DNA of 33,478 nt from an uncultured Victivallales bacterium (lineage in GTDB: Bacteria > Verrucomicrobiota > Lentisphaeria > Victivallales > CAZGYO01). The translations under genes and the position numbers were made by a program. How positions within the stretch are numbered: the first letter of the stretch is position 1; every line of letters begins with the position of its first letter. The stretch covers positions 1-33,478 of the forward strand of contig CAZGYO010000001.1 in the NCBI GenBank assembly GCA_964530455.1, written 5' to 3'. The notes below the pieces were generated by a model. The model saw nothing but the letters and a program-made list of their open reading frames with translations, did not search any database and was not told where the DNA came from. Positions 1-20,959 of the stretch are shown here, piece after piece.

Positions 1-123
1 AAATCGTTGAATTTTAGAACCCCGAAAGAGGTCTTTTTCAGCTCAAGTGTTGCACGTCAAACTTGAAACCGCCCTTTAATTTTGCGTTAATAACTTGCCA
101 TAAATATGTTTCGCATATCAGGC

Positions 124-175
124 AAGGAAAAACAGGGCATTAAATGGTCTGTTTTTGAGCCTGTTTTTTTTCCTT
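124..175 (+). terminator. Possible A-tract/stem/T-tract hairpin (intrinsic-terminator-like) upstream of recJ
   Basis: aaggaaaaacagg (124-136) is complementary to cctg+T8+cctt (160-175). The same left arm can alternatively pair with ctgttttt (149-156). The stem is AT-rich, so the call is weak. Confidence 0.2.
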
Positions 176-254
176 TTCAATGCGGCCGATACCGGCATTT
201 TGATCACTCTTCGCACAGTTCTTGCATGTCAATGGTCGCGTGATATTGTATACG

Positions 255-325
255 GAGCCAATTTCAAAACTCTCCGTGACCGCCTGCCATCCAATAGGGT
301 TCACGCGGAGTTTTGAAACTGGCTC
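255..325 (+). mobile_element. MITE/REP-like palindromic element, copy 1 (71 bp)
   Basis: Left arm gagccaatttcaaaactctccgtgacc and right arm ggttcacgcggagttttgaaactggctc are near-perfect inverted repeats. Flanked by tac(g)/tac(a). Ends 78 nt upstream of the recJ start. Confidence 0.85.
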
Positions 326-402
326 TACACATAAGATTCCGATTGACCTAAGATCTGTGCGATGGGGCTATAAGTTTCCGGAAGGTAAAATAAGGCAAGC
401 TA

Positions 403-2106
403 TTGGAAAAGGTGCAAAAACGCTGGGAAATAACACGCGCCCGCGAGGATCTGATAGAGGATCTGTCTTCCTCGCTCGGACTGGGCCGTGCCGCGGCCAT
501 GCTTTTGTCGGCAAGGCAGATAGACGCGGGGTCGGCAAAAAGTTTCCTTAACCCCCTTTTAAGTTCACTTTCCGACCCGTTCGAACTGCCCGGTGTGGAA
601 CGCGCTTCAGCCCGTCTCTGGAAGGCGGTAGGCGACGGTGAAAAAATAGTTATCCACGGTGACTACGACGCAGACGGCCTGACAGCGGCCACTCTTCTTT
701 ACAGCGTTCTTCTCGTGGCCGGCGCGGATGTCAGGATTTTTATTCCCGACAGGTTCGAGGATGGGTACGGACTAAGCGTCGAGTCCGCTTCATGTGTCCT
801 CGCTGAAGGCTGCGATGTACTTGTCACCGTCGACTGCGGAATCAGCAGCATAGACGCGGCCGAATTTTTGTTTGAACGTGAAATCTGTCTCATTGTGACC
901 GACCACCACGATCCCGCTTCTTCCCTGCCCAGGGCTTTCTGCGTAATCGACCCGAAACTCCACCCGGAACATGGCCACCTGTTGCCTCTTGCCGGGGTAG
1001 GTGTAGCGTTCAAGCTGTCCCACGGGTTTGTCAAATACGGCAGAGAGAAAAGCCTGGGCGCCGGTGATACAGATTTAAAAACGGTTCTGGACCTTGTGGC
1101 GCTAGGCACGGTCGCGGACGTTGTTCCTCTTGTCGGCGAAAACCGCATCCTGGTTTCGGCCGGGCTTAAACAACTGGCGCTTCAACGGCGTCCTGGAATC
1201 AAGGCGCTCTGCGACGTCGCCGGAATAGATATTGTGAATACCGGGAAAATCGCTTTCGGGCTGGCGCCCCGGATCAACGCCGCCGGCAGGATGGAAAACG
1301 CCGAACCAGCTCTTAAGCTACTGAGCTGCAAGAGCATCGCTACGGCATTCAGGGACGCGGAACTTTTGGAAGGCTATAACCGCGAACGTCAGAAAATAGA
1401 AGAACACATCTTCAATGAAGCTGTTTGCAAATTCCCTCCCGAAAAAGCCGCTTCGCGGTTTTCAGTGACGGTGGCAGGAAAAAGCTGGAATCCCGGCGTA
1501 ATAGGCATAGTCGCCTCGCGCCTTGTCAGGGAATACTATCGACCGGCGGTGGTAATTGCAATAGACGACGAGGGCAACGCTTCAGGTTCCTGCAGAAGCA
1601 TTCCGGAGCTGAATATTCTTGAGGCTCTGGACCAGTGCGCGGAGCATCTTGAGAGTTACGGGGGGCATCCAATGGCTGCGGGACTCCGTATCCGTGCGGA
1701 TAAGATCGACGAGTTCCGGGAACGCTTCGAAGAGGCCTCGGAAACGAGACTCGAGCCTGAATCCCTGGTTCCGAAGATAAAGGCTGACGGAGAAATATCA
1801 CTCTGTGATCTTGATCCGGCCTTTTTCTCCATCCTGAAAAGGATCGAACCCTTCGGGCAGGGAAACCCTAAACCTGTGTTCAAGATATCTGGCCTGAAAA
1901 TAAACAAAGTTTCACCGGCTGGGAAAAAGCACAGCCGCGGCGTCTTCTCCGATGAAAGAGGAATCAGCCTTCCCTTTATCGCTTTCGGATTCGATCCGGC
2001 CTCTTTTGGCGGCTCGGCCTGTAACGCCATGGTTTCTCCGCAGATCAACAGGTTCCGGGGATTTGAAAATCCGCAGTTGCAGGTTATTGATTACAGGATG
2101 GTATAA
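403..2106 (+). CDS. recJ: Single-stranded-DNA-specific exonuclease RecJ
   Basis: 567-aa ORF with DHH-family motifs (HGDYDADG, TVDCG, VTDHHD) and a DHHA1-like GGHPMAAG. There is no ATG at the 5' end; the start is TTG at 403 or the in-frame GTG at 412. Confidence 0.92.
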   Translation: MEKVQKRWEITRAREDLIEDLSSSLGLGRAAAMLLSARQIDAGSAKSFLNPLLSSLSDPFELPGVERASARLWKAVGDGEKIVIHGDYDADGLTAATLLYSVLLVAGADVRIFIPDRFEDGYGLSVESASCVLAEGCDVLVTVDCGISSIDAAEFLFEREICLIVTDHHDPASSLPRAFCVIDPKLHPEHGHLLPLAGVGVAFKLSHGFVKYGREKSLGAGDTDLKTVLDLVALGTVADVVPLVGENRILVSAGLKQLALQRRPGIKALCDVAGIDIVNTGKIAFGLAPRINAAGRMENAEPALKLLSCKSIATAFRDAELLEGYNRERQKIEEHIFNEAVCKFPPEKAASRFSVTVAGKSWNPGVIGIVASRLVREYYRPAVVIAIDDEGNASGSCRSIPELNILEALDQCAEHLESYGGHPMAAGLRIRADKIDEFRERFEEASETRLEPESLVPKIKADGEISLCDLDPAFFSILKRIEPFGQGNPKPVFKISGLKINKVSPAGKKHSRGVFSDERGISLPFIAFGFDPASFGGSACNAMVSPQINRFRGFENPQLQVIDYRMV

Positions 2107-2107
2107 A

Positions 2108-2182
2108 GAACCAATTTCAAAAATCTCCGCGGCCGCACCGTGTGCCGCCCAAAGGGTTCACGCGGAGTTTTGAAACTGGTTC
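2108..2182 (+). mobile_element. MITE/REP-like palindromic element, copy 2 (75 bp)
   Basis: gaaccaatttcaaaaatctccgcgg ... ggttcacgcggagttttgaaactggttc. Flanked by taaa/taaa, and the left taaa contains the recJ TAA stop. Ends 22 nt upstream of the rnc ATG. Confidence 0.85.
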
Positions 2183-2204
2183 TAAACAATAATGGACAGT
2201 CAAC

Positions 2205-2906
2205 ATGAACGAACAAAACATCTCCGGGCTGGAAAAAGTCCTCGACTACAAGTTCAGGGACCCTGCCCTTCTCAGGGAAGCAGTGACACATCCTTCATTC
2301 ACTCCGGAACACGATATCGACTACAACAACCAGCGCATGGAATATCTGGGCGACGCGGTGATAGACATGATCATTTCGGAATACCTTTTCGCCAAATATC
2401 CAAGGCATGACGAAGGAATCCTTACAAAGCTGCGTTCCGAAATGAATAAAAAGGAATCGCTGGCCGGTATGGCCTCAACCCTGTCACTTGGGAAATATCT
2501 CCGTCTGGGCAGAGGCGAGGAGAGAAGCGGAGGGAGGGAAAAAGATTCAAGCCTGGCCGACGCGATGGAAGCAGTCGCAGCGGCAGTTTACCTGGACGGC
2601 GGTCTCGAAGCCGCCCGTTCACTCATACTACCGCACATTGAAGTTCTTTTGAGGGACGGCGAGGAAATCCTCAAACAGAACAACCCGAAAGGCATGCTCC
2701 AGGAAATATGCCAGAAACACTTCGGGGAAACACCGGTATACATTCTCGAAAAGGCTGAAGGCCCGGATCACTGTAAAAAATATACTGTAAGGGTCTGTAT
2801 ACAGGGCACAGACTATGCCGGCGGGACGGCACAAAGCGTGAAGAATGCAGAGACAAGCGCCGCGCTCGAAACCCTCGGCATTCTGCGTTCCCGGGGGTAT
2901 ACATGA
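2205..2906 (+). CDS. rnc: Ribonuclease III
   Basis: 233-aa ORF with the RNase III signature NQRMEYLGDAV, downstream catalytic acidic residues (ADAMEAV) and a C-terminal dsRBD-like segment (PKGMLQEICQK ... AETSAALETL). Confidence 0.94.
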   Translation: MNEQNISGLEKVLDYKFRDPALLREAVTHPSFTPEHDIDYNNQRMEYLGDAVIDMIISEYLFAKYPRHDEGILTKLRSEMNKKESLAGMASTLSLGKYLRLGRGEERSGGREKDSSLADAMEAVAAAVYLDGGLEAARSLILPHIEVLLRDGEEILKQNNPKGMLQEICQKHFGETPVYILEKAEGPDHCKKYTVRVCIQGTDYAGGTAQSVKNAETSAALETLGILRSRGYT

Positions 2907-2960
2907 AACTTCATCCCGTTCTCTTGATTTCAGCGCCCTGACCCCTTATACTCAAAAAAG

Positions 2961-3043
2961 GAGCCAATTTCAAAAATCGGCGTGGCATTCGCGCAAAAAA
3001 AACCTGCCGCCCAAAAGTTGGTTCGGAGTTTTGAAACTGTCTC
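2961..3043 (+). mobile_element. MITE/REP-like palindromic element, copy 3 (83 bp)
   Basis: gagccaatttcaaaaatc ... ggttcggagttttgaaactgtctc. Shares the internal ggcgtggcattcgcgc with copy 4. Flanked by aaaag/aaaag. Ends 7 nt before the ATG at 3051. Confidence 0.8.
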
Positions 3044-3050
3044 AAAAGAC

Positions 3051-3419
3051 ATGAATTTAATGAAAAGCATGCTTATACTAGATGATGATGCCGGTATCAG
3101 GGCAATGCTTTCCACTGCTTTCGAACATGAGGGTTTCAAAACAGAGCAGACCTCCCGTTGCGGGGAAGCCCTGCAACTCTGCGAGGAAAACCGCTACGAT
3201 GTGATTATTCTCGACTACAATGTTGAGGACGGCATAGGCTGGGAACTGGCCGATGTTGTCAGAAAAAGGCCGGACATCTACGGGACCCCCAAGCTTGTCG
3301 GAATTTCAGGCACCGTTGATCTTAACTCCATATCGGTTACGGATCTCGACCTTTCCCTGCCCAAACCCTTCGATATTTTTGATCTCATAGCCAAGGTAAA
3401 AGATCTTTCAGAAAACTGA
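3051..3419 (+). CDS. Stand-alone response-regulator receiver (CheY-like) protein
   Basis: Acidic pocket LILDDDAG, phospho-acceptor context DVIILDYN, conserved Ser (GISG) and Lys-Pro (LPKPF). No output domain and no kinase in the window. The ORF track starts at 2982, but that part lies inside MITE copy 3, so I place the start at ATG 3051. Confidence 0.8.
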   Translation: MNLMKSMLILDDDAGIRAMLSTAFEHEGFKTEQTSRCGEALQLCEENRYDVIILDYNVEDGIGWELADVVRKRPDIYGTPKLVGISGTVDLNSISVTDLDLSLPKPFDIFDLIAKVKDLSEN

Positions 3420-3506
3420 TATGGCACAATCGCTTTGCCCTCAGCGATATTGAGCGGTATCGACTGGCTGGCCCGAAAAAGCTGCTTGCATATTTAGGCC
3501 TTGCTC

Positions 3507-4511
3507 CTAGGAACTCCGGAACATCTGCCCGGTCAACATTGCGGGGAACCAAAGCAGGAACACGATAACACTTAAGAACGGAAATCCCGGGTATCCTGCA
3601 ATTGCGCACGCGGACGCCTGGAGAAATATCAAAGCGCGAATCATTGCCCCAATCTGAGCCGGCGCGTCCGTCCCCGGTCCATGGAGGAATGAGTTCAGAC
3701 TTCTTATTGAAAAGACGATAAGCAGAAGCGACAGGCTCAGTCCCATGATTATTCCGGGCGGGATCTCCCCGGCCCAGACGATAATGTGAAGTCTGGAGAC
3801 TATCACCGTAGCGATCCATAGAAAAGAAGCAGAAACGGCAATTATAGCGCCCTTCACAAGGGTGTCTTTGTGTTTAGCAGGGGACATCTCACGACTGGCA
3901 GCAAGAGATATTCCGAAGATATAGCAGAACCACACGGCAAGAGCCGGGGCAATGACCGGGATGGCGGGTTCTGTTCTTGCGGTCGCGTAGAAGCCGAGCA
4001 TTACGTTCATCACCCTGCAGGAGGCGACGATTCCGGAAGCGATAATCCTGTAACGGTCCTTGAAATAGAAATTGTACGCGATGCACAACGCGGCGATCAG
4101 CAGAACGGTCCTGAACCCTTTCTCAGCGAGCTGGAATCCGCAGTAACAGCTTGCTGCAAAGAGAAATAAAGCTGCGAAGCACGCAACCGGCACCGGGACG
4201 ATGCCGGCGGGCAGCGGTCGCCCCGGACGTTCCGAACGGTCTGTTTCGATGTCCGCCAGATCGTTTGTGAAAAGCCCGAAACAGTAGATCAATACGGATG
4301 CTGCCAGCGCCCATGAGAGCGGCCCCCAATCCTCTGATCCGTGCCCTCCCGCGATATAGCCGAAAATGACATCACCCGGAACCGTGAACAGGTTAGGCAC
4401 ACGCAGCAGCGCCAGGCAGCCCCATATTGTTTTTTTCAGGTTATTTGATTTTATTTTGAACCCCGTCAGTTTTGAAAAAAGCGACAGCGTTTCTGGTTGT
4501 GGCAGCCGCAA
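3507..4511 (-). CDS. UbiA-family prenyltransferase (polytopic membrane protein)
   Basis: 334-aa hydrophobic ORF with the Asp-rich motif NDLADIETDRSERPGRPLPAG typical of UbiA prenyltransferases. The annotated ATG overlaps the TatD 3' end by 71 nt, so the start is uncertain. Confidence 0.72.
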   Translation of the reverse strand: MRLPQPETLSLFSKLTGFKIKSNNLKKTIWGCLALLRVPNLFTVPGDVIFGYIAGGHGSEDWGPLSWALAASVLIYCFGLFTNDLADIETDRSERPGRPLPAGIVPVPVACFAALFLFAASCYCGFQLAEKGFRTVLLIAALCIAYNFYFKDRYRIIASGIVASCRVMNVMLGFYATARTEPAIPVIAPALAVWFCYIFGISLAASREMSPAKHKDTLVKGAIIAVSASFLWIATVIVSRLHIIVWAGEIPPGIIMGLSLSLLLIVFSIRSLNSFLHGPGTDAPAQIGAMIRALIFLQASACAIAGYPGFPFLSVIVFLLWFPAMLTGQMFRSS

Positions 4512-5397
4512 GATCTTCGGGTTTTAATTTTTTGACATTCGCGGCTGATTCAAGAACGAGAGGCAGGTATTCCGGGTGGTTTTCCCTGCCGCGGTACGGG
4601 ACGGGGGCCAGGTATGGGCTGTCGGTTTCCAGGAACAGCCTCTCTACCGGGATCGTGGACAATGATTCGCGCACATTCCCTGCCGACTTGAAAGTTACAA
4701 TTCCCGTAAACCCTATATAGCCGCCGAGTTCCATGAACTTCTCTGCACTTGAGGGCGTCCCTGTATAGCAGTGAACAACGAAACGTCCGCCGTCTTCGAC
4801 GAAATCCCGCAAAATTTCCAGGGCATCGCTGTAGGCGCTGCCGTCACTGTCCCTGCAGTGCACTATAACAGGCAAATTCCTGTTAAGACCGATTCCCAGA
4901 AAAGATTCGAAGAGTTTTCTTTGTGCTGCTGATGGAGAATTTTCGTAAAAGTAGTCGAGCCCTGTCTCCCCGACGGCAACTGCGCGGGGCGAGGAAAGAA
5001 ACTCGTCGACTCGTTCCAGGTCACCCGCCGAAATCCCGCTCGCGTCGTGCGGGTGTATTCCGGCGGAAAACCATGCGTTTTGCGTTGATTCCGCGAATTT
5101 CGCTGCCATCCCGCTTTCCGTGGAGTTTCCGCCTACGGCCAGAAGGTATTCGACTCCCGCGGCGCGGGCACGGTCAGCGTAATCGCCGGGAGGCTCGTCC
5201 CCGCGGTAATGGAAATGCGTGTCGAAAAGTCCGTGGTAGCGTTTTCCAGGTCTTGTTTCTGAGCCAATTTTAAAACTCTCCGTGGCCGCCTGCCTGTGCG
5301 TCGCCTGACTGCGAGCGTAGTCAGGCGTGGCATTCGCGCCTGCGCTACCAACGCGGTTCACGCGAAGTTTTGAAACTGGCTCTTCTGTGTCTTTCAT
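4441..5397 (-). CDS. TatD-family metal-dependent hydrolase/DNase
   Basis: Motifs DTHFHY, VGETGLDY, VHCR, VHCYTG and ETDSPYL. The first ~50 codons are unrelated to TatD and run through MITE copy 4, so the start is uncertain. Confidence 0.85.
   Translation of the reverse strand: MKDTEEPVSKLRVNRVGSAGANATPDYARSQATHRQAATESFKIGSETRPGKRYHGLFDTHFHYRGDEPPGDYADRARAAGVEYLLAVGGNSTESGMAAKFAESTQNAWFSAGIHPHDASGISAGDLERVDEFLSSPRAVAVGETGLDYFYENSPSAAQRKLFESFLGIGLNRNLPVIVHCRDSDGSAYSDALEILRDFVEDGGRFVVHCYTGTPSSAEKFMELGGYIGFTGIVTFKSAGNVRESLSTIPVERLFLETDSPYLAPVPYRGRENHPEYLPLVLESAANVKKLKPEDLAAATTRNAVAFFKTDGVQNKIK
5261..5382 (+). mobile_element. MITE/REP-like palindromic element, copy 4 (122 bp, expanded core)
   Basis: gagccaattttaaaactctccgtggcc ... 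ggttcacgcgaagttttgaaactggctc. Nested hairpin cgcctgact-N8-agtcaggcg at 5302-5327. Flanked by ttct/ttct. Lies inside the 5' end of the TatD ORF. Confidence 0.85.
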
Positions 5398-5555
5398 TCT
5401 GAATTTAACCGGGGTTTTTTCAAAAATAATTTTGATTTCCGAGAAAAAAAAGGAAAATTACGGTTTTTAAAGGAACAAAGCTGTATTTGGTTTTGTCACA
5501 TGACACATTACACGTTGAATTCGCTTTTTCACTTTTCAATTTTACAATACAGAAT

Positions 5556-6521
5556 ATGCGCATGGCGGACATAGATGTAAAAAATCTGACTCGAAGATTC
5601 GGCTCTATCACGGCTGTTGATGACGTGTCTTTCCACGTGTCTTCCGGTGAAGTTCTGGGTTTTCTCGGCCCGAACGGCGCTGGAAAGACCACGACGATGC
5701 GCATGATCACAGGATATCTGACCCCGAACAAGGGCGCTATCTCTGTTGCCGGCATAGATGTTCTTAAAAATCCGGAAGCCGCAAAGATGAAGATCGGATA
5801 TCTTCCGGAAAACGCTCCGGTCTACAGGGACATGGATGTCAAGTCCTTTCTGTCTTTTGTGGCGACTGTCCGAGGCATGAGAGGCAAGCAGGCATCCGAT
5901 GCAATAGACAGGGCGATCGAGGTGTCCAGGCTGGAATCCGTCGTCTACCAGAACATTGATACGCTTTCAAAGGGATATCTAAGGCGCACATGTTTCGCGC
6001 AATCGATAATTCACGACCCTCCGGTTCTCATACTTGACGAACCCACCGACGGCCTGGACCCGAACCAGAAGCATGACGTGAGGGAGATGATACGCGAAAT
6101 GGGACGCGACAAGGCCATAATAATTTCGACCCATATCCTGGAGGAGGTAGAGGCCTGCTGTTCCAGGGCCTTAATCATCTCTTCCGGCCGTCTGGTCGCC
6201 AACGGCACGCCGGAAAACCTGAAAAAGCACTCCTTAAACGCGGGAACCGTCATTATCTCAATAAAATCCGCGGGAAACCACAAGGAGGCGTTGGAATCTC
6301 TTTCTTCAGTATCCGAGTGTATCCCGGAAGGCGGTGAAAACTCTTTCCGCCTGGTGCCGCCGGCGGGTAAGAAAGCAGCCGAAACTGCTATGGACACCGC
6401 GGAACTCGCCAGGAAAAACAGATGGGAGCTGGAATCTTTAGCGACAGATCCCGGACAACTTGACGATGTTTTCCGCAGGATTACCCTTAAAGGGGAAAAG
6501 ATAGAGGAACCCGCGCAATGA
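5556..6521 (+). CDS. ABC transporter ATP-binding protein (ABC-2/GldA-like)
   Basis: Walker A GPNGAGKTT, signature LSKGYLRR, Walker B LILDEPTDGLD. The start is probably ATG 5556 or 5562 rather than the ORF-track 5487. Confidence 0.9.
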   Translation: MRMADIDVKNLTRRFGSITAVDDVSFHVSSGEVLGFLGPNGAGKTTTMRMITGYLTPNKGAISVAGIDVLKNPEAAKMKIGYLPENAPVYRDMDVKSFLSFVATVRGMRGKQASDAIDRAIEVSRLESVVYQNIDTLSKGYLRRTCFAQSIIHDPPVLILDEPTDGLDPNQKHDVREMIREMGRDKAIIISTHILEEVEACCSRALIISSGRLVANGTPENLKKHSLNAGTVIISIKSAGNHKEALESLSSVSECIPEGGENSFRLVPPAGKKAAETAMDTAELARKNRWELESLATDPGQLDDVFRRITLKGEKIEEPAQ

Positions 6522-13251: not shown

Positions 13252-13325
13252 TGGCTGGCCGACAAGGACTCGAACCTTGACTAACAGGGCCAGAACCTGT
13301 CGTGCTACCATTACACCATCGGCCA
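13252..13325 (-). tRNA. tRNA-Gln (anticodon CUG), CCA encoded
   Basis: Hand-folded cloverleaf: acceptor TGGCCGA/TCGGCCA (U1-A72), D arm GTGT-AATGGTA-GCAC, anticodon arm ACAGG-TTCTGGC-CCTGT, variable TAGT, T arm CAAGG-TTCGAGT-CCTTG, discriminator G, CCA. Confidence 0.93.
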
Positions 13326-13356
13326 GAGAGAAGCGTAAAATAACCGTTAATCACGA

Positions 13357-13375
13357 TTAGTCAAGGTTCGAGTCC
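13357..13375 (+). repeat. Perfect 19-bp inverted duplicate of the tRNA-Gln variable-loop/T-arm segment
   Basis: ttagtcaaggttcgagtcc (13357-13375, + strand) is the exact reverse complement of 13266-13284 inside the tRNA gene. Similarity stops at both ends of the 19-mer. Confidence 0.85.
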
Positions 13376-13481
13376 CTTTCTATCTCCTTGGCCCGCATAT
13401 TTCATGAAAAATCGATATTTTAGGGTTAATGTCCTGTTTATTAACAGGTTATATGAATTTTTAAAAATTACAAAATGTAAT

Positions 13482-13712
13482 TTAAAGGAACAGAAGATTT
13501 TTCACCCAGCGCATTCGCATTTCATAGGGATCGCCCTCGCGCAGACCTTCCAGTTCAAACCGCAGATTGACATGTTCACGAAGTTTCAGGAACTGTTCGG
13601 TCCGCTCCTCGACCGGCTTCTTGATAAAGATAAGTTCCGTTTTTTGCTGTCCGGCATTAACCTCCAAATCAAAGAGTCTCAATATACCCCGGCGAAACAT
13701 TTTTCCCAACAC
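13482..13712 (-). CDS. Hypothetical small protein (about 73-76 aa), no family recognised
   Basis: Only ORF with protein-like charged/hydrophobic alternation in the 13.33-13.81 kb gap (FRRGILRLFDLEVNAGQQKTELIFIKKPVEERTEQFLKLREH...). TTG at 13712 or ATG at 13703. Its stop is embedded in an AT hairpin at 13465-13483. Confidence 0.25.
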   Translation of the reverse strand: MLGKMFRRGILRLFDLEVNAGQQKTELIFIKKPVEERTEQFLKLREHVNLRFELEGLREGDPYEMRMRWVKNLLFL

Positions 13713-13740
13713 CGTTCACGCGGAGTCTTCAAATCGGCCA
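13713..13740 (+). repeat. Decayed solo right arm of the MITE/REP-like element
   Basis: cgttcacgcggagtcttcaaatcggcca matches the right-arm consensus ggttcacgcggagttttgaaactggctc at about 21 of 28 positions. No left arm was found. Confidence 0.5.
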
Positions 13741-15324: not shown

Positions 15325-16407
15325 TCATTCGGTCTCCTCTTCAGGATATTGAAGTGCATTGCGTTCCTTCAGCATCCGGTCGAAGTCACTCTCGAAAAGC
15401 CGATCCTGAACAATGCGGTACTTCTCAAATTCGCTTTCGGCGTGTGCTTTGGCGATTTCGGCCGTTACTCTTCCTGCATCCTGAAGGATTTCCCTATCCC
15501 AAAGCTTGAGAAATCCGCTCAGGCGCTGTTCCCAGTCCTCCATAGTCATGGGAATCTTCCGCATGGCCTGCATTTCCGCCATGTCCAGATAGGCCGATAC
15601 AATTCGTTGCATCTGCCCAAGCTCAAACTCAGAGAGGTAATTCTTGGCGATGGTCACATCATATTTATGGATTTTGCCTTTTGGAGCTTCATCCCAACTG
15701 GTCAACCCCATGTTTTCTTTTCTATGATCCGCACGAGCCACAATGACTTCTGCCGCACTATTGCCGTGGATGGCATAGTGCATCTTGTTTTGAACCGCGG
15801 CAAAGAAGCGTTTGGTAGCAGTGGCAGATGGGTCATAGTCCAGAGCCGTGGCATAGATGTCCGTGATTTTCTGATAGAACTTGCGCTCGGAAAGGCGAAT
15901 CTCCCGGATTTTTTCCAATTGACGTTCAAAGAACTCGTCCGTCAGATTGCCACCGTGCTTTAGTCGCTCCACATCCATGGTCCAGCCTTGAATCGTATAG
16001 TCCTTGACGATCTGATTCGCCCATTTGCGGAACTGCACCGCACGTTCGTTTTCGATCTTAAAGCCTACGGCTATAATGGCCTGCAGGTTGTAGTGCTTTG
16101 TGTTGTAGTGCTTGCCGTCGGCGGCAGTTATTCGAAAACTTCGAATAACTGAATCTTCCTCCAACTCACTGTCGGAGAAGACCTTCTTAAGGTGGTAGTT
16201 GATGGTGTGCGTTTCCACATCGTAGAGCACCCCCATCATCTTCTGAGTCAGCCAGATATTTTCGTCCTCGTAGCGCATTTCCACGCTGGTTTGTGATCCG
16301 CCACCTGCCGCAACAAACGTCAGGTATTCGGCCGCCGAGGAGCGAATGAGAGACATCTCATTTTCCCCGTCCTTCCGTCGTTCTCTGTTTCTATCGTTTT
16401 TCATCAT
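15325..16407 (-). CDS. RhuM-family (virulence protein RhuM / COG3943-like) protein
   Basis: Characteristic N-terminal segment VEMRYEDENIWLTQKMMGVLYDV...INYHLKKVF...YNLQAIIAVGFKIENERAVQFRKWANQIVKDYTIQGW. 360 aa. The start could be the internal ATG at 16356. Confidence 0.85.
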   Translation of the reverse strand: MMKNDRNRERRKDGENEMSLIRSSAAEYLTFVAAGGGSQTSVEMRYEDENIWLTQKMMGVLYDVETHTINYHLKKVFSDSELEEDSVIRSFRITAADGKHYNTKHYNLQAIIAVGFKIENERAVQFRKWANQIVKDYTIQGWTMDVERLKHGGNLTDEFFERQLEKIREIRLSERKFYQKITDIYATALDYDPSATATKRFFAAVQNKMHYAIHGNSAAEVIVARADHRKENMGLTSWDEAPKGKIHKYDVTIAKNYLSEFELGQMQRIVSAYLDMAEMQAMRKIPMTMEDWEQRLSGFLKLWDREILQDAGRVTAEIAKAHAESEFEKYRIVQDRLFESDFDRMLKERNALQYPEEETE

Positions 16408-16523
16408 CCAGTTCCATCAGCTTTTGTTTGCGGTCGCAGTTCAGTTTATACTTCTTCATGTTCATTCGTGATTTCCCTCGAGCCATTCGTTGAGTACCCA
16501 TCGTTTGTCTAATCGTTCAGTCA

Positions 16524-17969
16524 TCAGTCCAGCACCTCCCAGTGGCCGCCTTTGCGTGGGCCGACATGGCGCAGCTTGCCTTCCTTCGACAGCTTTGAAA
16601 CGGACATTTCCACGGCACGCACCGTCCGGTCGACGGCACGGGCAACTTCCTTCAGCGTCATCTCCGGATTCCTCCGCAACAGGCCGATGATTTCTACCGA
16701 AGTTTTCCCCGACGCATCCTGCTTTTCTACCGAAGTTTCTACCGAAGTTTCTACCGAAGTTTTCTCCGACGTTTTCTCCCCGAGCTCGCCAGCTTGGGGG
16801 ATGCTGATTATCATACGGAAGACATCCCCCTCGACAAGTTGCGGATCGGTACCGCCGTATTTCTTGCCGTATTTCATCATGTTGCGCATGCCGGAGCCGA
16901 GTTCGTCGGCCCGGTCGATTTCCCGGAAAAAGGCACCGATCACCGGGTTTTTGGGATAGGGAGCGAAGGTGTCGGGATCAAGTGCGCCAAAGCCATGAGG
17001 CCGGTTGGCATTGTCGGTTGTCACCTTCCCGTGTTCAATGACAAGCCGGGCGGGAACGCCGCTGGCATATTCCCGATGGATTATCAGATTGGATGCCACT
17101 TCCCGGAAGATAGCATCCCGCAGGCTTCGGCGCTCATCGCCTTCCAGGTAGAACGGATCGGGGAGATGCTTCCGGATAAAGGCCATGATCCGGTTGTAAG
17201 TGTCAATCAGGTTGGTGCGCACCAGGTCACGGTCATCGTAGCGGTCCACATTCACCTTGCGCAAGATCAGATCCGTCCTGTGGGCCGGACAGACCTGTAG
17301 GATCTGGGAATCAGTACCCAGCAGCATGACTCCGGCCAGCGTGATGCCGAGGCTGCGGTTTTCCGGATGCGGCTGGTAGAGCTGGGCGCTTTTTACCAGC
17401 GCTTCATCGTCCATGCCGACCCACGGATGACCCGGGTGATTGATGCGCACATGGTTTCGGCAGCGTTCAATCAGGTCGGCCCGAAGATTAGCGGGCTGGA
17501 TATGCACATAAACCGTGTTCTCGCTGTAGGTTGCTTGCTTGCGCTGATAGAGGCGGGCAACCTGCACGGTATTGTCGGTGATGTCCAAGTCCCCGTCCTC
17601 GTTGCGGTCGTAGATGCGCCCGTTGCAGCGATGTACCTGCGAGCTTTCCGGGACATAGATATGCAGGAGTGTTTTTCCTTCTAACACGACTTCATCCACT
17701 GAGAGGTAGGCGGGAGGCTGCAGCTTTTCCGGATTGTTGATGGCCGTTACGAAATCCTTCTTGAGTTGGCCTGCGATCTCGGTGGCGATGCCGGACACTT
17801 TGCCCGAGTCCTCAACGCCCAGAAGTATCGTACCGCCATGCCGGTTGAGAAAGGCGCACACTGTTTCATATACAGATTTCGGCAATTGACCGCGGCACGC
17901 TTTGAACTCGGTCGAGATTCCCTCGCCGTCCGCGATCAGCGTTCTTAATTTGTGTTTATTCGTGTTCAT
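16524..17969 (-). CDS. Schlafen-like AlbA_2 domain + HATPase_c_4 + C-terminal winged-helix protein (COG2865-type, often mislabelled RecG-like helicase)
   Basis: N-terminus EGISTEFKAC...FLNRHGGTILLGVEDSGKV (AlbA_2). Middle NLIIHREYASG...ELGSGMRNMMKY (HATPase_c_4-like). C-terminus IIGLLRRNPEMTLKEVARAV...LSKEGKLRHVGPRKGGHWEV (wHTH). Confidence 0.85.
   Translation of the reverse strand: MNTNKHKLRTLIADGEGISTEFKACRGQLPKSVYETVCAFLNRHGGTILLGVEDSGKVSGIATEIAGQLKKDFVTAINNPEKLQPPAYLSVDEVVLEGKTLLHIYVPESSQVHRCNGRIYDRNEDGDLDITDNTVQVARLYQRKQATYSENTVYVHIQPANLRADLIERCRNHVRINHPGHPWVGMDDEALVKSAQLYQPHPENRSLGITLAGVMLLGTDSQILQVCPAHRTDLILRKVNVDRYDDRDLVRTNLIDTYNRIMAFIRKHLPDPFYLEGDERRSLRDAIFREVASNLIIHREYASGVPARLVIEHGKVTTDNANRPHGFGALDPDTFAPYPKNPVIGAFFREIDRADELGSGMRNMMKYGKKYGGTDPQLVEGDVFRMIISIPQAGELGEKTSEKTSVETSVETSVEKQDASGKTSVEIIGLLRRNPEMTLKEVARAVDRTVRAVEMSVSKLSKEGKLRHVGPRKGGHWEVLD
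16725..16779. repeat. In-frame 12-nt tandem repeat (ttctaccgaagt x3 perfect plus 2 degenerate) in the AlbA_2 protein linker
   Basis: Perfect units at 16725-16736, 16737-16748 and 16749-16760, degenerate units to about 16779, and an extra isolated unit at 16692-16703. Encodes EKTSEKTSVETSVETSVE. Confidence 0.9.
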
Positions 17970-17978
17970 TCGCGGTTC

Positions 17979-18113
17979 CTATCTTTTCAACGCTTCGCGG
18001 ATGGTGCGGACGACGTCGACGCTGTCGAGGGTTTCGATGTGATTGCGCACGGGATGATTCGGGTCGTACAGCCGATCGAACTCGCGCTGGATGTATTGGC
18101 GTCCGGGTGACAT
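17979..18113 (-). CDS. Hypothetical 44-aa ORF coupled to the upstream YhcG gene
   Basis: The ATG at 18113 lies 1 nt after the YhcG-1 TGA (18115-18117), and the ORF ends 9 nt before the AlbA_2 ATG. Sequence MSPGRQYIQREFDRLYDPNHPVRNHIETLDSVDVVRTIREALKR. No family recognised. Confidence 0.3.
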   Translation of the reverse strand: MSPGRQYIQREFDRLYDPNHPVRNHIETLDSVDVVRTIREALKR

Positions 18114-18114
18114 G

Positions 18115-19158
18115 TCAGTCTTCCTCCCCGCTTTCGAGCATTTTCCGTTCAGCGAGTCGTTCGCGTACTTCAATGAGAGCGTTATGCAGTTTTTCCTCAA
18201 GAAGTTTCTTGGGCGGCAGGTCGGTCCAATATTCGGCGACCATGATGTTGTCTTTCCGCATATTGAGCAGTTCCACCTGTTCGGTGCCGGCTTCCGCGCA
18301 CAGGATCAGTCCGATGGGGGCTTCTTCGCCATCCTGCCGCTCGTATTTGTTGAGCCAGTTGAGATAGAGTTCCATCTGTCCTTTGAAGGCTGCTTTGAAA
18401 CGATCGATTTTTAGGTCGACCGCCACCAGCCGTTTGAGTTTGCGGTGAAAGAAGAGCAGGTCGAGATAAAAATCCTCACCATCAATAATCATACGCTTTT
18501 GGCGTTCCACGAAGGCAAAGCCCTTGCCCAGCTCCAGTATAAAAAGCTCCAGTTCCTTTAGCAGGGCACTTTCCAGTTCGTTTTCCAGATAGCCGTCTTT
18601 CAGACCCAGAAAATCGAGAAAATAGGGATCCTTAAAGTTGCCGCCGAGGTGTTCCGCATCCGCAAGAGCCAGTTTGGTATCGGCTATCTCCGATCGTTCA
18701 AACGCTTTGCGCTCGATTTGATGCCTCAACTCACGTTTGCTCCAACGAGATTCACTGGCTGTGCGGGCATAAAAGAGTCGGGCTTCGTCCGATTTCAGGG
18801 GAATCAACGCCAGAAAATGTGACCAACTCAATTGTCGTGCCAGCGGAACGACAATCTGGACATCCGGAAAACACTCCGCAAACTGCATCATGCGCCGTAG
18901 GTTTTTCGCCTCAAAACTTTTGCCATAGAGCACGACCAATTCATTGGCCAGCGACACGACAACCTGTTTGCCGTATTCCGCCCGTTCGCCGTGAAGCACC
19001 TCTTGATTGATTCGCTTGCCCACATGCCAATAGGTGATGGTTACCGCACTGTTGACTGCTGCAACGGCTTGACTGCGTCCCTGCTCAATCAGCGATTTCA
19101 GATCTCGCAGCAGGTTCTTTTGCGGCATTGCGATTTTGGGCGAGTTCATTTTACTCAT
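18115..19158 (-). CDS. YhcG/DUF1016 PD-(D/E)xK nuclease-family protein, paralog 1
   Basis: DUF1016 N-terminal region (AVNSAVTITYWHVGKRI...AEYGKQVV) and a nuclease core (FYLDLLFFHRKLKRLVAVDLKIDRFKAAFKGQMELYLNWL) with D...D-L-K intact. Confidence 0.85.
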   Translation of the reverse strand: MSKMNSPKIAMPQKNLLRDLKSLIEQGRSQAVAAVNSAVTITYWHVGKRINQEVLHGERAEYGKQVVVSLANELVVLYGKSFEAKNLRRMMQFAECFPDVQIVVPLARQLSWSHFLALIPLKSDEARLFYARTASESRWSKRELRHQIERKAFERSEIADTKLALADAEHLGGNFKDPYFLDFLGLKDGYLENELESALLKELELFILELGKGFAFVERQKRMIIDGEDFYLDLLFFHRKLKRLVAVDLKIDRFKAAFKGQMELYLNWLNKYERQDGEEAPIGLILCAEAGTEQVELLNMRKDNIMVAEYWTDLPPKKLLEEKLHNALIEVRERLAERKMLESGEED

Positions 19159-20408
19159 TCCTTACCTCTAATCCGCATACGCTCTTCAAGAGCGGCTTCG
19201 ATAAGGCGGCGTTCACGTTCGATTTCGCGCCGGAGCTGTTCTTCGCTGGGGAGGTTGGGCAGGTATTTGGAGGCGAAGATTTGTTTGCGGTCGTTGAGCA
19301 CGGAGTAGCGAGCGACGGTATCGCATTTTTCGGCGCAGAGAATCAGCCCGATGGTGGGATTGTCGTCGGGGGCGGTGAAGAGACCGTCAAACATGCGGAC
19401 ATAGCCATCCATCTGGCCGACATCACCATGGGTGAGTTTTTCGATTTTCAGGTCGATCAAAAGGTAAAACTTCAGTTTGCAATGGTAGAAAACCAGATCA
19501 ATAAAGCGGTCTTCTTCGTCGACGCGAATATGCTTCTGCCGTGCGACAAAAGCGAAACCGGTGCCCAACTCCAGTAGGAAATGCTGTAGGTGGGTGATGA
19601 TCGCCTGCTCGACATCGGTTTCACGCACATCGGCAAAATTTGGATAGCCGAGAAATTCGAGCACGTAGGGGTTTTTGAGAACTTCGTCAGGAGCGGCTGG
19701 CGTTTTCTGGAGCTGTCGCCCTTCGGCGATCATTTTGTCTGGCTGCTGCGCGTGCAGGGAGCGTTCGTAATATTGGGTGTGTACCTGCCGCTCCAGCGTG
19801 CGCTTGCACCATCCGCCTTCAATGGCTTCGCGTTCATAAAAGTCGCGGGCCAGTTCGTTATCTACACGCATCAAGACGCGGTAGTGTGACCAGGTGAGCT
19901 TCGGGGAAAAGCCCAATTCGTCACCCGTTGGATGATGCTTTTTCAAATCCCACCCCGCTGGGGAGAGCATTTCATTATCCTCAGATTGGCTACCCGCAGA
20001 GAAGCTTTTGTGTAATTTCAAAAGGTCGCCCGACGGGCGACTTTTTCCATTGCGCTGAGATTGGTCGCCAGTTGGGCGACCAATCTCTCTGAACCGATCT
20101 GCATAGACCAGATAGAATGTCCTGAAATACTTTAAACTGGTTATTGAAAATCCTTTACCGTACTTCTCACTCAACCGCGTCGATAAATCCGCAATGACCT
20201 GCTTTCCATATTCCGCCCGATCTTCTCCTCCCTGCAGCTCCTCGACGATTTCACGACCGATAAGCCAGTAGGCCATGACCATATTGCTGTTGACGGCACG
20301 GACGACATTACCGCGCGCCTGCTCAAGAATGGAGACGACACGATCAAAAAGAGCATGATCCTCAATCCTTTGCGGCAGCATGCCGTCATGTGAGGTTTTG
20401 TTTCCCAT
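19155..20408 (-). CDS. YhcG/DUF1016 PD-(D/E)xK nuclease-family protein, paralog 2 (with an insertion of about 65 aa)
   Basis: Same architecture (AVNSNMVMAYWLIGREI...AEYGKQVI; FIDLVFYHCKLKFYLLIDLKIEKLTHGDVGQMDGYV). The ATGA overlap at 19155-19158 couples it to paralog 1. ATG at 20408 (TTG at 20411 in the ORF track) shares one nt with the ORF6N-fragment TGA. Confidence 0.85.
   Translation of the reverse strand: MGNKTSHDGMLPQRIEDHALFDRVVSILEQARGNVVRAVNSNMVMAYWLIGREIVEELQGGEDRAEYGKQVIADLSTRLSEKYGKGFSITSLKYFRTFYLVYADRFREIGRPTGDQSQRNGKSRPSGDLLKLHKSFSAGSQSEDNEMLSPAGWDLKKHHPTGDELGFSPKLTWSHYRVLMRVDNELARDFYEREAIEGGWCKRTLERQVHTQYYERSLHAQQPDKMIAEGRQLQKTPAAPDEVLKNPYVLEFLGYPNFADVRETDVEQAIITHLQHFLLELGTGFAFVARQKHIRVDEEDRFIDLVFYHCKLKFYLLIDLKIEKLTHGDVGQMDGYVRMFDGLFTAPDDNPTIGLILCAEKCDTVARYSVLNDRKQIFASKYLPNLPSEEQLRREIERERRLIEAALEERMRIRGKE
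20020..20087. repeat. Two GC-rich perfect hairpins sharing the core GGTCGCC-N5-GGCGAC inside the YhcG-2 coding sequence
   Basis: Hairpin 1, 20020-20046: aaaag-gtcgccc-gac-gggcgac-ttttt. Hairpin 2, 20057-20087: gagattggtcgcc-agttg-ggcgaccaatctc (13-bp perfect stem). The cores are 39 nt apart and in frame. Confidence 0.85.
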
Positions 20409-20734
20409 CAAATATCCTCCACGGATAACGTACCGAGAATGAGGGTTTTCTTTGCCCTACGGATGAGATCGGCAACAAAACGGTAAGCGTCATAAACCTG
20501 TCCATTAAAAAAAATGCCTTGCTTCGCTGGCTCTCCTGCCTCCAATGCCTGAAATACTTTTTCAAAGTTTTGTCCGGTTTCGGACTCAAAAGCTATTTGT
20601 CGTCGCTCCACCGAACCCAACCGGGCAAAAATATTGGCGTTATGCTGAATGAATTTTCTCATCTCAACGAAGGCACGCATTATTTGTGAATGATTCCGGC
20701 GGTCGCTGTTTGGCTCTGTCAGTTTATTCTCCAT
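20408..20734 (-). pseudogene. Fragment (middle portion) of an ORF6N-domain-family protein, truncated at both ends
   Basis: MRAFVEMRKFIQHNANIFARL...FEKVFQALE...KQGIFFNGQVYDAYRFVADLIRRAKKTLIL matches, from memory, the region downstream of the ORF6N/KilA-N-like domain in proteins of about 330 aa. The N-terminal domain and the C-terminal ~150 aa (expected to continue ...IDNY...) are absent. Confidence 0.5.
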
Positions 20735-20959
20735 GCCTTATATCCTAAAATCTACTGGCCCTGGTTCCTTTTATGTACATATTCAATGAACCACGACGGG
20801 GGCGGGGCTGAGACACTCGAAGACTGATTGACCCCGATCGAACGGGGTTTGCTGAATATGTACCATTTTATCAATCGCCAAAAACATAACATCTGATATG
20901 ACTTTTGCAAGAGGTACGGGAAGAGCTTTCCGGAACGCTAATGGTTAGTATACCGGACA

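Follow-up and report, generated by a model that had tools for sequence, protein, structure and literature searches.

The window analysed here, 33,478 nucleotides of DNA from an uncultured Victivallales bacterium, carries several copies of a short palindromic sequence near its start, and the question is whether these are mobile elements, and of which kind, or fixed hairpins belonging to the genes that they adjoin. All four copies claimed in an earlier reading of the sequence alone are present at 255..325 (copy 1, 71 nt), 2108..2182 (copy 2, 75 nt), 2961..3043 (copy 3, 83 nt) and 5261..5382 (copy 4, 122 nt), and all have the same orientation (+), as had been claimed. Copy 1 is 78 nt upstream of recJ, copy 2 lies between recJ and rnc, and copy 3 lies between rnc, which encodes RNase III (2205..2906, + strand), and a receiver gene, with its right end 7 nt before the receiver ATG at 3051; rnc is thus flanked by copies 2 and 3. 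Copy 4 lies within the minus-strand tatD ORF, so that the proposal that every copy sits at a gene boundary stands for the three intergenic copies but fails for the fourth.

The terminal inverted repeats described previously were found to be approximately 25 nt long, with arms that are 84–88% complementary. A degenerate 24-nt arm pattern matches the window seven times, compared with 0.00 matches expected from 100 shuffles. The eighth arm, missed by this pattern, is the decayed right arm of copy 3, which has five mismatches and has lost the stable hairpin; nhmmer recovers all eight arms of the window copies. The decayed solo arm noted earlier was recovered in repeat family D1 at 68% identity, is also backed by nhmmer (E=0.0025) and is probably the right arm of a remnant copy (13712..13738, +). 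Searching Rfam with the whole window at the gathering threshold, and with a 281-nt copy at an E-value threshold, gave no matching family, the output being only tRNA-Gln and sub-threshold hairpin matches to miRNA models.

The sequence-only reading had predicted further copies, recurrent flanking repeats and empty sites in relatives, all of which are seen. A pattern scan places the family at no fewer than 71 loci, with all matches listed in two Victivallales MAGs, JAFGFR01 and CAZANS01, where the copies are dispersed among unrelated loci. The window and the two MAGs have no other DNA in common, and the family is therefore present in at least three genomes. Complete copies number 25, with lengths of 50–281 nt, and align as an internal-deletion series of the 281-nt master. 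Copy 3 retains an internal module of this master, and GGCGTGGCATTCGCGC, which was correctly reported as shared by copies 3 and 4, belongs to the master element as well; the nested hairpin reported in copy 4 is also real. In metagenomes the strict 24-nt arm pattern gave no matches and a relaxed 20-nt pattern gave 99 loci, while a scan of viral contigs gave no matches.

Direct repeats do flank the window copies, although the variable lengths first assigned to them do not hold, in that the family duplicates exactly 4 bp. The duplication is perfect in two of the four window copies, with taaa at 2104-2107 and 2183-2186 around copy 2, and ttct at 5257-5260 and 5383-5386 around copy 4. As had been observed, the duplicated target of copy 2 includes the recJ stop codon, TAA, which is within the left taaa. 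Only three of four flanking bases are equal in the other two, copy 1 having tacg at 251-254 and taca at 326-329, and copy 3 having aaag and aaaa, or aaag on both sides if a 1-nt indel is allowed. Among the 25 complete copies, 13 have a perfect 4-bp duplication exactly at the boundary; none of 48 shifted controls gave more than two perfect 4-mers, and 10,000 permuted flank pairings averaged 0.6, the highest value being 5. Furthermore, two elements are missing from orthologous loci, the one at L053 1003-1208 from L006 and the one at L005 10-59 from L054, where the flanking genes are approximately 80% identical at the protein level. These empty-site comparisons concern MAG copies, the window's own copies having no close relative (the closest relative of the window TatD protein is 56% identical). 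Apparent mid-gene disruptions at L043, L009 4790 and L068 proved on inspection to be fused neighbouring genes or spurious ORFs.

No transposase had been seen in the window, and a tblastn search with the partner transposase described below gave no match there or in 357 kb of MAG loci. Nor did a search for inverted arms separated by 0.45–4.5 kb, whether or not their flanks matched, reveal an autonomous copy among the MAG loci. Two candidates were rejected: a pair of right ends in L042 surrounds a 376-aa putative non-transposase ORF and lacks a duplication, and an IS1634 transposase in L063 has no relation to the arms.

An autonomous insertion sequence with the same termini does exist elsewhere. 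A 1.4-kb IS that is abundant in metagenomes has ends that match the outer 16 nt of the MITE, GAGCCAATTTCAAAAC, exactly; an example is L072 23-1446, which encodes a 391-aa DUF772+DDE_Tnp_1 transposase. Related transposases (47–83% identical) adjoin the same terminus in L078, L087, L099, L143 and L152, and a 40-aa transposase fragment lies beside it in L126. As a test that did not depend on the DNA pattern, nine loci were retrieved through the identity of their proteins, eight of which include the right end; GAGCCAATTTCAAAAC is present with no more than one mismatch at seven of the eight right ends and five of the nine left ends. Perfect 4-bp duplications, equal in length to those of the MITE, flank five of nine complete IS copies, including the annotated IS1182-family members L180 (ISUnCu17 family) and L182. 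The similarity between MITE and IS is confined to the outer 16–19 nt. Across 91% of its length the transposase shares 44–47% identity with proteins annotated as IS1182-family transposases (ISUnCu17-like), and NCBI labels a close relative 'IS5/IS1182 family'; however, the transposase itself reaches only 65 bits with the NCBIfam IS1182 model, under the curated cut-off of 270. Metagenomes also contain other MITE families with the same terminus, for which a hand count gives 4-bp duplications in 27 of 56 paired copies.

The window repeats are thus real copies of a MITE family, probably of IS1182 type, in agreement with the earlier proposal of mobile elements whose transposase is encoded elsewhere. 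The preferred explanation is that these non-coding elements, 50–281 nt long with terminal inverted repeats of approximately 25 bp, would be moved in trans by a DDE transposase that an insertion sequence of the IS1182 family (ISUnCu17-like clade) encodes. The transposase would recognise the outer 16 bp, and insertion at a target cut with a 4-bp stagger, usually rich in A/T, would generate the 4-bp duplication. The window copies are old internal-deletion derivatives of the 281-nt master, which is also found in the two Victivallales MAGs. We regard this explanation as a whole, from the mobilisation in trans to the derivation by deletion, as very probable. Mobilisation by an ISUnCu17-like transposase is the step that we infer, and surviving copies presumably persist where they do little harm, either between the genes of the recJ-rnc-receiver cluster or, in tatD, as an in-frame insert at the 5′ end.

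The elements had also been called REP-like. REP/BIME sequences are extragenic palindromes whose spread depends on recombination or on a RAYT transposase (Y1, IS200/IS605-like), and they would also account for small, mostly intergenic, clustered palindromes that can form hairpins. However, this alternative is unsupported because the elements have duplications, of a fixed 4 bp at exact boundaries, and exactly the termini of a DDE-type IS, both of which contradict the label. In addition, the arms begin with GAGCC and have no GTAG or CGTC head, the complete copies occur singly and not as tandem BIME arrays, and sizes extend to 281 nt. We consider a REP/BIME origin very improbable.

Each copy had been expected to fold into a hairpin when transcribed in either direction. 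On either strand, copies 1, 2 and 4 do form long hairpins, their z-scores lying between −4.9 and −7.7 (−6.6 on the + strand and −7.7 on the − strand for copy 1), with energies of −33 to −39 kcal/mol, but copy 3 has no strong fold (z −0.8 and −1.3). The gene-boundary locations, single orientation and strong folding of three of the four copies, together with the position of copy 2 within the rnc leader, could suggest hairpins that are conserved and immobile and that regulate the recJ-rnc-receiver-tatD region in cis, acting as terminators, attenuators or processing sites. Such an origin is refuted by the recurrence of the sequence in other genomes, where it occupies dozens of unrelated sites, the duplications that the elements carry and the empty orthologous sites, and the lost fold of copy 3 is a further point against it. 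A consensus scan of the window found no promoter inside any element, with promoter and terminator match counts at shuffle level; the only terminator-like match within an element is on the minus strand of the left arm of copy 3, a place at which no gene terminates, and the T-tract tail of a terminator is missing from the sense strand of every element. A cis-regulatory origin is the reading to which we give the least credence.

The MITE family could nonetheless have supplied copies that were later put to use, with hairpins of approximately 25 bp serving as RNase III substrates that set the level of rnc. Without copy 2 the recJ-rnc spacer is 19 nt, and because the element-free spacers of the cluster are only 19 nt and approximately 57 nt, recJ, rnc and the receiver gene are probably co-transcribed, placing the elements within the mRNA. 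The hairpin energies are consistent with such a use, and RNase III is known to cleave the inverted repeats of Correia elements in mRNA (PMC10969869). However, the hairpin of copy 3 is gone, and proximity to rnc could be coincidence, since the four copies cluster within 5 kb. By analogy to the Correia elements this use may be entertained, albeit as an unlikely one. Effects on host RNA, for example through long transcript hairpins, would be by-products.

Copy 4 raises a separate question of reading frame. The tatD-family hydrolase ORF (4441..5397, − strand) is annotated as 318 aa, and copy 4, beginning 15 nt past its ATG, forms a 42-residue N-terminal insert; element plus duplication amount to 126 nt (42 codons), and the frame in which they are read is the one frame of six that is open. 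The Pfam TatD_DNase domain begins at residue 58 of the product, the best 120 TatD homologues are 255–283 aa long, and the insert is present in none of 12 aligned. In-frame read-through near the 5′ end is seen in four of the 25 complete copies (copy 4, L033 5848 in an ApbE lipoprotein gene, L071 6968 and L053 1003), all of them in frame 0 and 2–9 codons past an in-frame ATG, and the tatD ORF has no start codon in the stretch that separates copy 4 from the TatD domain. An element that, with its duplication, amounts to a multiple of three, and whose frame from base 1 is open from either end, would therefore leave a gene usable after in-phase insertion near its 5′ end.

It is conceivable that the family has been shaped for such tolerance within coding sequence, as in the Rickettsia palindromic elements (RPEs). 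Length plus four was noticed, post hoc, to be divisible by three for 18 of the 25 copies and for 11 of the 16 length classes (binomial 0.004). Every copy of 176–281 nt is open in both frame +0 and frame −0, with both frames open in shuffles at P values of 0.04 (281 nt) and 0.14 (206 nt). However, the copies share descent, so the mod-3 and frame counts are not independent; most copies are intergenic; the element-encoded peptide occurs in only 3 of 5.8 billion proteins; and MITE families of 154 nt and 93 nt with the same terminus break the multiple-of-three rule. An extension of approximately 70 residues ahead of a signal peptide would also normally be harmful. We hold selection for coding tolerance to be unlikely. 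In the frame that starts at base 1 of the element, the gene-proximal arm reads GGAG-N7-ATT, which could be a ribosome-binding site and a rare AUU start. A broader proposal would combine a family selected to be harmless in genes, through a length that with the 4-bp duplication is a multiple of three and a frame open from both ends, and keeping tatD, the ApbE lipoprotein gene and two secreted-protein genes expressed, with rnc-flanking hairpins that put RNase III under the control of its own substrate; this combination is somewhat less probable still.

The practical value of recognising the MITE family lies in annotation and assembly. Contig ends fall inside the element for many contigs of the MAGs, so that it breaks assemblies, with many contigs of one Victivallales MAG stopping within it; it also distorts or inflates gene calls, as in the tatD product annotated with 42 element-derived residues. 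It also links a previously unnamed Lentisphaerota repeat family to an IS1182-like clade of insertion sequences that has been little characterised despite being very abundant, and GAGCCAATTTCAAAAC with its 4-bp duplication offers a clean, testable pair of transposase and terminus. If the frame-neutral reading were true, this would be a second bacterial case of RPE-like coding-tolerant elements, and if the RNase III reading were true, a Correia-like RNA-processing element outside the Proteobacteria.

REP/BIME sequences resemble the window family in being short, extragenic, hairpin-forming palindromes. REPs are 20–40 nt long with a GTAG or CGTC head, require a Y1 transposase and do not duplicate their target, and none of these features applies to the window family. 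The Rickettsia elements are similar in that the copy 4 palindrome lies in frame in a housekeeping gene with the ORF unbroken, and in that the lengths of the window family lean to multiples of three, although in-frame insertion is the rule for RPEs and appears to be the exception here; we know of no clear partner transposase or clear duplication for RPEs. The Correia elements (CREE) of Neisseria share inverted repeats of approximately 25 nt, long RNA hairpins if co-transcribed, gene-boundary locations and size variants. They differ in having a TA duplication, IHF sites and promoters, whereas the window family has a 4-bp duplication of varied sequence, unrelated arms and no promoter-like match inside.

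Closer to the proposed transposase, members of the ISUnCu17-like IS1182 clade are annotated on plasmids of Aeromonas, Acinetobacter and Comamonas. Their transposases are DUF772+DDE_Tnp_1 proteins of about 370–390 aa. The clade has termini of the form GAGsy..TTkCAAAAs and 4-bp duplications, and its metagenomic members have exactly the outer 16 nt of the MITE; in contrast, the window elements lack a transposase and have nothing in common with these IS past the outer 16–19 nt. A literature search for the terminus sequence returned nothing, and in a search for MITEs with Lentisphaer* the only co-mentioning paper concerns Porphyromonas. The sequence family is thus previously undescribed, but as a kind it is ordinary. 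At 50–281 nt its members fall below the approximate 500-bp limit for MITEs and carry no transposase gene. Like prokaryotic MITEs in general (reviewed in PMC10969869), they are small, lack coding capacity, and have terminal inverted repeats and a duplication of fixed length, and they occur as many dispersed, mostly intergenic copies that vary in size by internal deletion and share the termini of an autonomous IS.

Four copies of the palindromic element, a MITE (a small non-coding mobile element), lie where the sequence-only reading had placed them, at 255-325, 2108-2182, 2961-3043 and 5261-5382 (copies 1-4), and all have the same orientation, as was also claimed. A degenerate 24-nt pattern for the terminal inverted repeats, or arms, matches seven times in the window, compared with 0.00 expected from 100 dinucleotide-preserving shuffles; the eighth arm, at the right of copy 3, has five mismatches and yet was recovered by profile search. 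The hairpin proposed for each copy is present in copies 1, 2 and 4, which form long hairpins on both strands (z-scores -4.9 to -7.7), but not in copy 3, which is decayed and has lost its folding (z -0.8 and -1.3). No additional copies were found by nhmmer in the other 28 kb of the window, and the decayed solo arm noted previously is a probable remnant copy at 13712-13738 (nhmmer E=0.0025). No Rfam family matches the element.

The MITE is a dispersed family. An arm-pattern scan of species-representative genomes gave at least 71 loci, all of which, among the matches listed, are in two other Victivallales MAGs, CAZANS01 and JAFGFR01. In CAZANS01, many contigs terminate within a MITE, the usual sign of repeats breaking short-read assembly. 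Apart from the MITE, the window shares with the MAG loci only one 77-nt intergenic stretch of nucleotide similarity, and it therefore represents a third genome; TatD homologues place it in the Lentisphaerota/Victivallales, with the nearest relative only 56% identical. The 77-nt stretch (20787-20863) aligns at 83% identity with L045 7578-7660 of a Victivallales MAG. It is located between a Pyr_redox_2 gene and a 108-aa ORF, each encoded by the minus strand, and draws no Rfam match at E≤1. Its folding z-scores are -2.0 in the window (minus) and -3.0 and -3.7 at L045 (plus and minus), and the stretch may represent a conserved leader or a small RNA.

Defined by arm pairing, 25 complete copies were available from the window and the MAG loci, with lengths of 50, 58, 59, 63, 68, 71, 74, 75, 83, 86, 114, 122, 133, 176, 206 and 281 nt. 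When oriented and aligned these form a deletion series from a 281-nt master, recognisable internal modules of which are retained in the window copies. The sequence reported as common to copies 3 and 4 is real and corresponds to module GGCGTGGCATTCGCGC of the master, and the 48-nt right-end module in the window copies reaches 96% identity with MAG copies.

A perfect 4-bp direct repeat is found precisely at the element boundary in 13 of the 25 copies, whereas repeats of 2, 3, 5 or 6 bp occur in 0-1 copies, each of 48 shifted-flank controls gives two or fewer, and randomly re-paired flanks average 0.6 and never exceed 5 in 10,000 trials. The sequence of the duplicated 4-mer differs between copies, most being A/T-rich. 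The target-site duplications described previously are thus real and recur in other copies, but they are uniformly 4 bp and not of variable length; the flanks in the window are tacg/taca, taaa/taaa, aaag/aaaa and ttct/ttct for copies 1 to 4. Among orthologous genes common to the two MAGs (∼80% protein identity), there are two places where one MAG carries an element that the other lacks: L053 1003-1208, empty in L006, and L005 10-59, empty in L054. Because of these duplications and empty sites, an origin as fixed regulatory hairpins is ruled out, as is one as REP-type elements, the alternative offered alongside the MITE interpretation. The MITE interpretation of the sequence-only reading is therefore supported: the copies belong to a genuine MITE family, not described before, of Victivallales-type Lentisphaerota.

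The claim that every copy sits at a gene boundary does not extend to copy 4 (122 nt), which lies in frame 15 nt inside the TatD-family gene (4441-5397, minus strand). The annotated 318-aa product, present identically in a public protein collection, carries 54 additional N-terminal residues relative to 12 aligned homologues, which begin with M, one to three residues and LFDTHFH; homologues among the best 120 are 255-283 aa long. Deletion of the element and one ttct leaves MKDTETRPGKRYHGLFDTH, so the insert is exactly 42 codons, and its reading frame in tatD is the only stop-free frame of the element's six. Upstream of the TatD domain, start codons occur only at ATG 5397, ahead of the element, and at a GTG within it, so some of copy 4 must be translated unless initiation is non-canonical.

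Three MAG copies (L033 5848-6053, L071 6968-7248 and L053 1003-1208) are similarly read through in frame 0, each lying 2-9 codons past an in-frame ATG and preceding a signal peptide; an ApbE-family lipoprotein is among the hosts. Adding 4 to the element length gives a multiple of three in 18 of the 25 copies and in 11 of the 16 length classes (binomial 0.004, a pattern recognised post hoc), and every copy of 176-281 nt is open in frames +0 and -0, counted from base 1 at either end. Only three proteins in a 5.8-billion-protein collection contain an element-encoded peptide, which disfavours a general coding role, and we regard frame neutrality or coding by the family as a lead and not a finding.

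Copy 2 starts one base after the recJ stop codon (recJ, 403-2106), and the TAA is contained in its left duplication (taaa, 2104-2107), both as originally noted; without the element the recJ-rnc spacer would be 19 nt. The co-directional recJ, rnc (2205-2906) and receiver-domain gene (most likely start ATG 3051, to 3419) probably share one mRNA that includes copies 2 and 3; a UbiA-family gene (3507-4511) follows on the minus strand. Such a transcript would carry RNA hairpins of ∼25 bp on either side of rnc. Correia inverted repeats in mRNA are RNase III cleavage substrates (PMC10969869), and by this parallel the candidate hairpins might be targets of the enzyme. In a scan of 1-5700, promoter-like and terminator-like matches were at shuffle level, with no promoter-like match within any MITE copy and a single terminator-like one, in the copy 3 left arm on the minus strand.

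Several other features were observed. A second MAG repeat family begins CTAAATAAAGCAGTTGCCGCAGTGTGCC (L015, L021, L028, L029, L035, L040, L049, L062 and L070), with inverted end AACTGCTTCATTTAG in L062; its terminal CTAA is a repeated MITE target, adjoined by a GAGCC-type MITE in four loci, a pattern suggestive of a hot spot or of nested insertion. At L042 4206-5670, two inverted MITE right ends surround a 376-aa putative non-transposase ORF; no matching duplication was found there, and the structure may represent a pair of truncated insertions or a composite. In the window, a minus-strand gene run at 15325-20411 (RhuM, a Schlafen AlbA_2/HATPase_c_4 protein and two adjoining YhcG/DUF1016 PDDEXK nucleases) may be a mobile or defence islet; its Schlafen-like ORF (16524-17969, minus) contains about four units of a 12-nt tandem repeat, TTTCTACCGAAG, at 16691-16771. 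A 24-nt inverted repeat (13261-13380, 92% complementary), in which part of tRNA-Gln (13252-13325, minus) pairs with a second copy of itself 72 nt downstream, may reflect the type of tRNA-end duplication left by integrative elements.

Neither the window, as stated previously, nor the sampled MAG loci yielded a cognate transposase. In the metagenome collection the strict arm pattern had no match, and a pattern relaxed to 20 nt of the terminus gave 99 loci. Many of these are other MITE families (104, 154, 93 nt and others), which share the outer 16-18 nt and differ in their interiors; 4-bp duplications are present in 27 of 56 paired copies (hand count). Among the 99 is a complete insertion sequence with the same termini (L072 23-1446, 1,424 bp), encoding a 391-aa product with DUF772 and DDE_Tnp_1 domains. 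Transposases 47-83% identical stand at the expected distance from the same terminus at L078, L087, L099, L143 and L152, and L126 has a 40-aa fragment near it. As an independent check, nine loci (eight proteins) were retrieved by protein identity alone: the right end is GAGCCAATTTCAAAAC with 0-1 mismatch in seven of the eight that include it, and the left end is GAGCCAATTTCAAAAC with 0-1 mismatch in five of nine and GAGGTAATTTCAAAAG in three more. Perfect 4-bp duplications flank five of nine complete IS copies, and a further copy is flanked by a 5-bp one. Transposases of this family are very common (>8,000 database proteins at E≤1e-10, most on ∼1.4-kb contigs). As a caveat to the family assignment, the transposase reaches only 65 bits with the NCBIfam IS1182 model, whose cut-off is 270. 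Judged by sequence, the MITE termini and 4-bp duplication match a probable IS1182-family (ISUnCu17-like) insertion sequence: the closest annotated transposases, carried on plasmids and 44-47% identical across 91% of the length, are named 'IS1182 family' and 'IS1182-like element ISUnCu17 family', and the ends of these plasmid elements, GAGCCTCTTGCAAAAG and GAGCTTCTTGCAAAAC, are variants of the terminus shared by the MITE and the IS.
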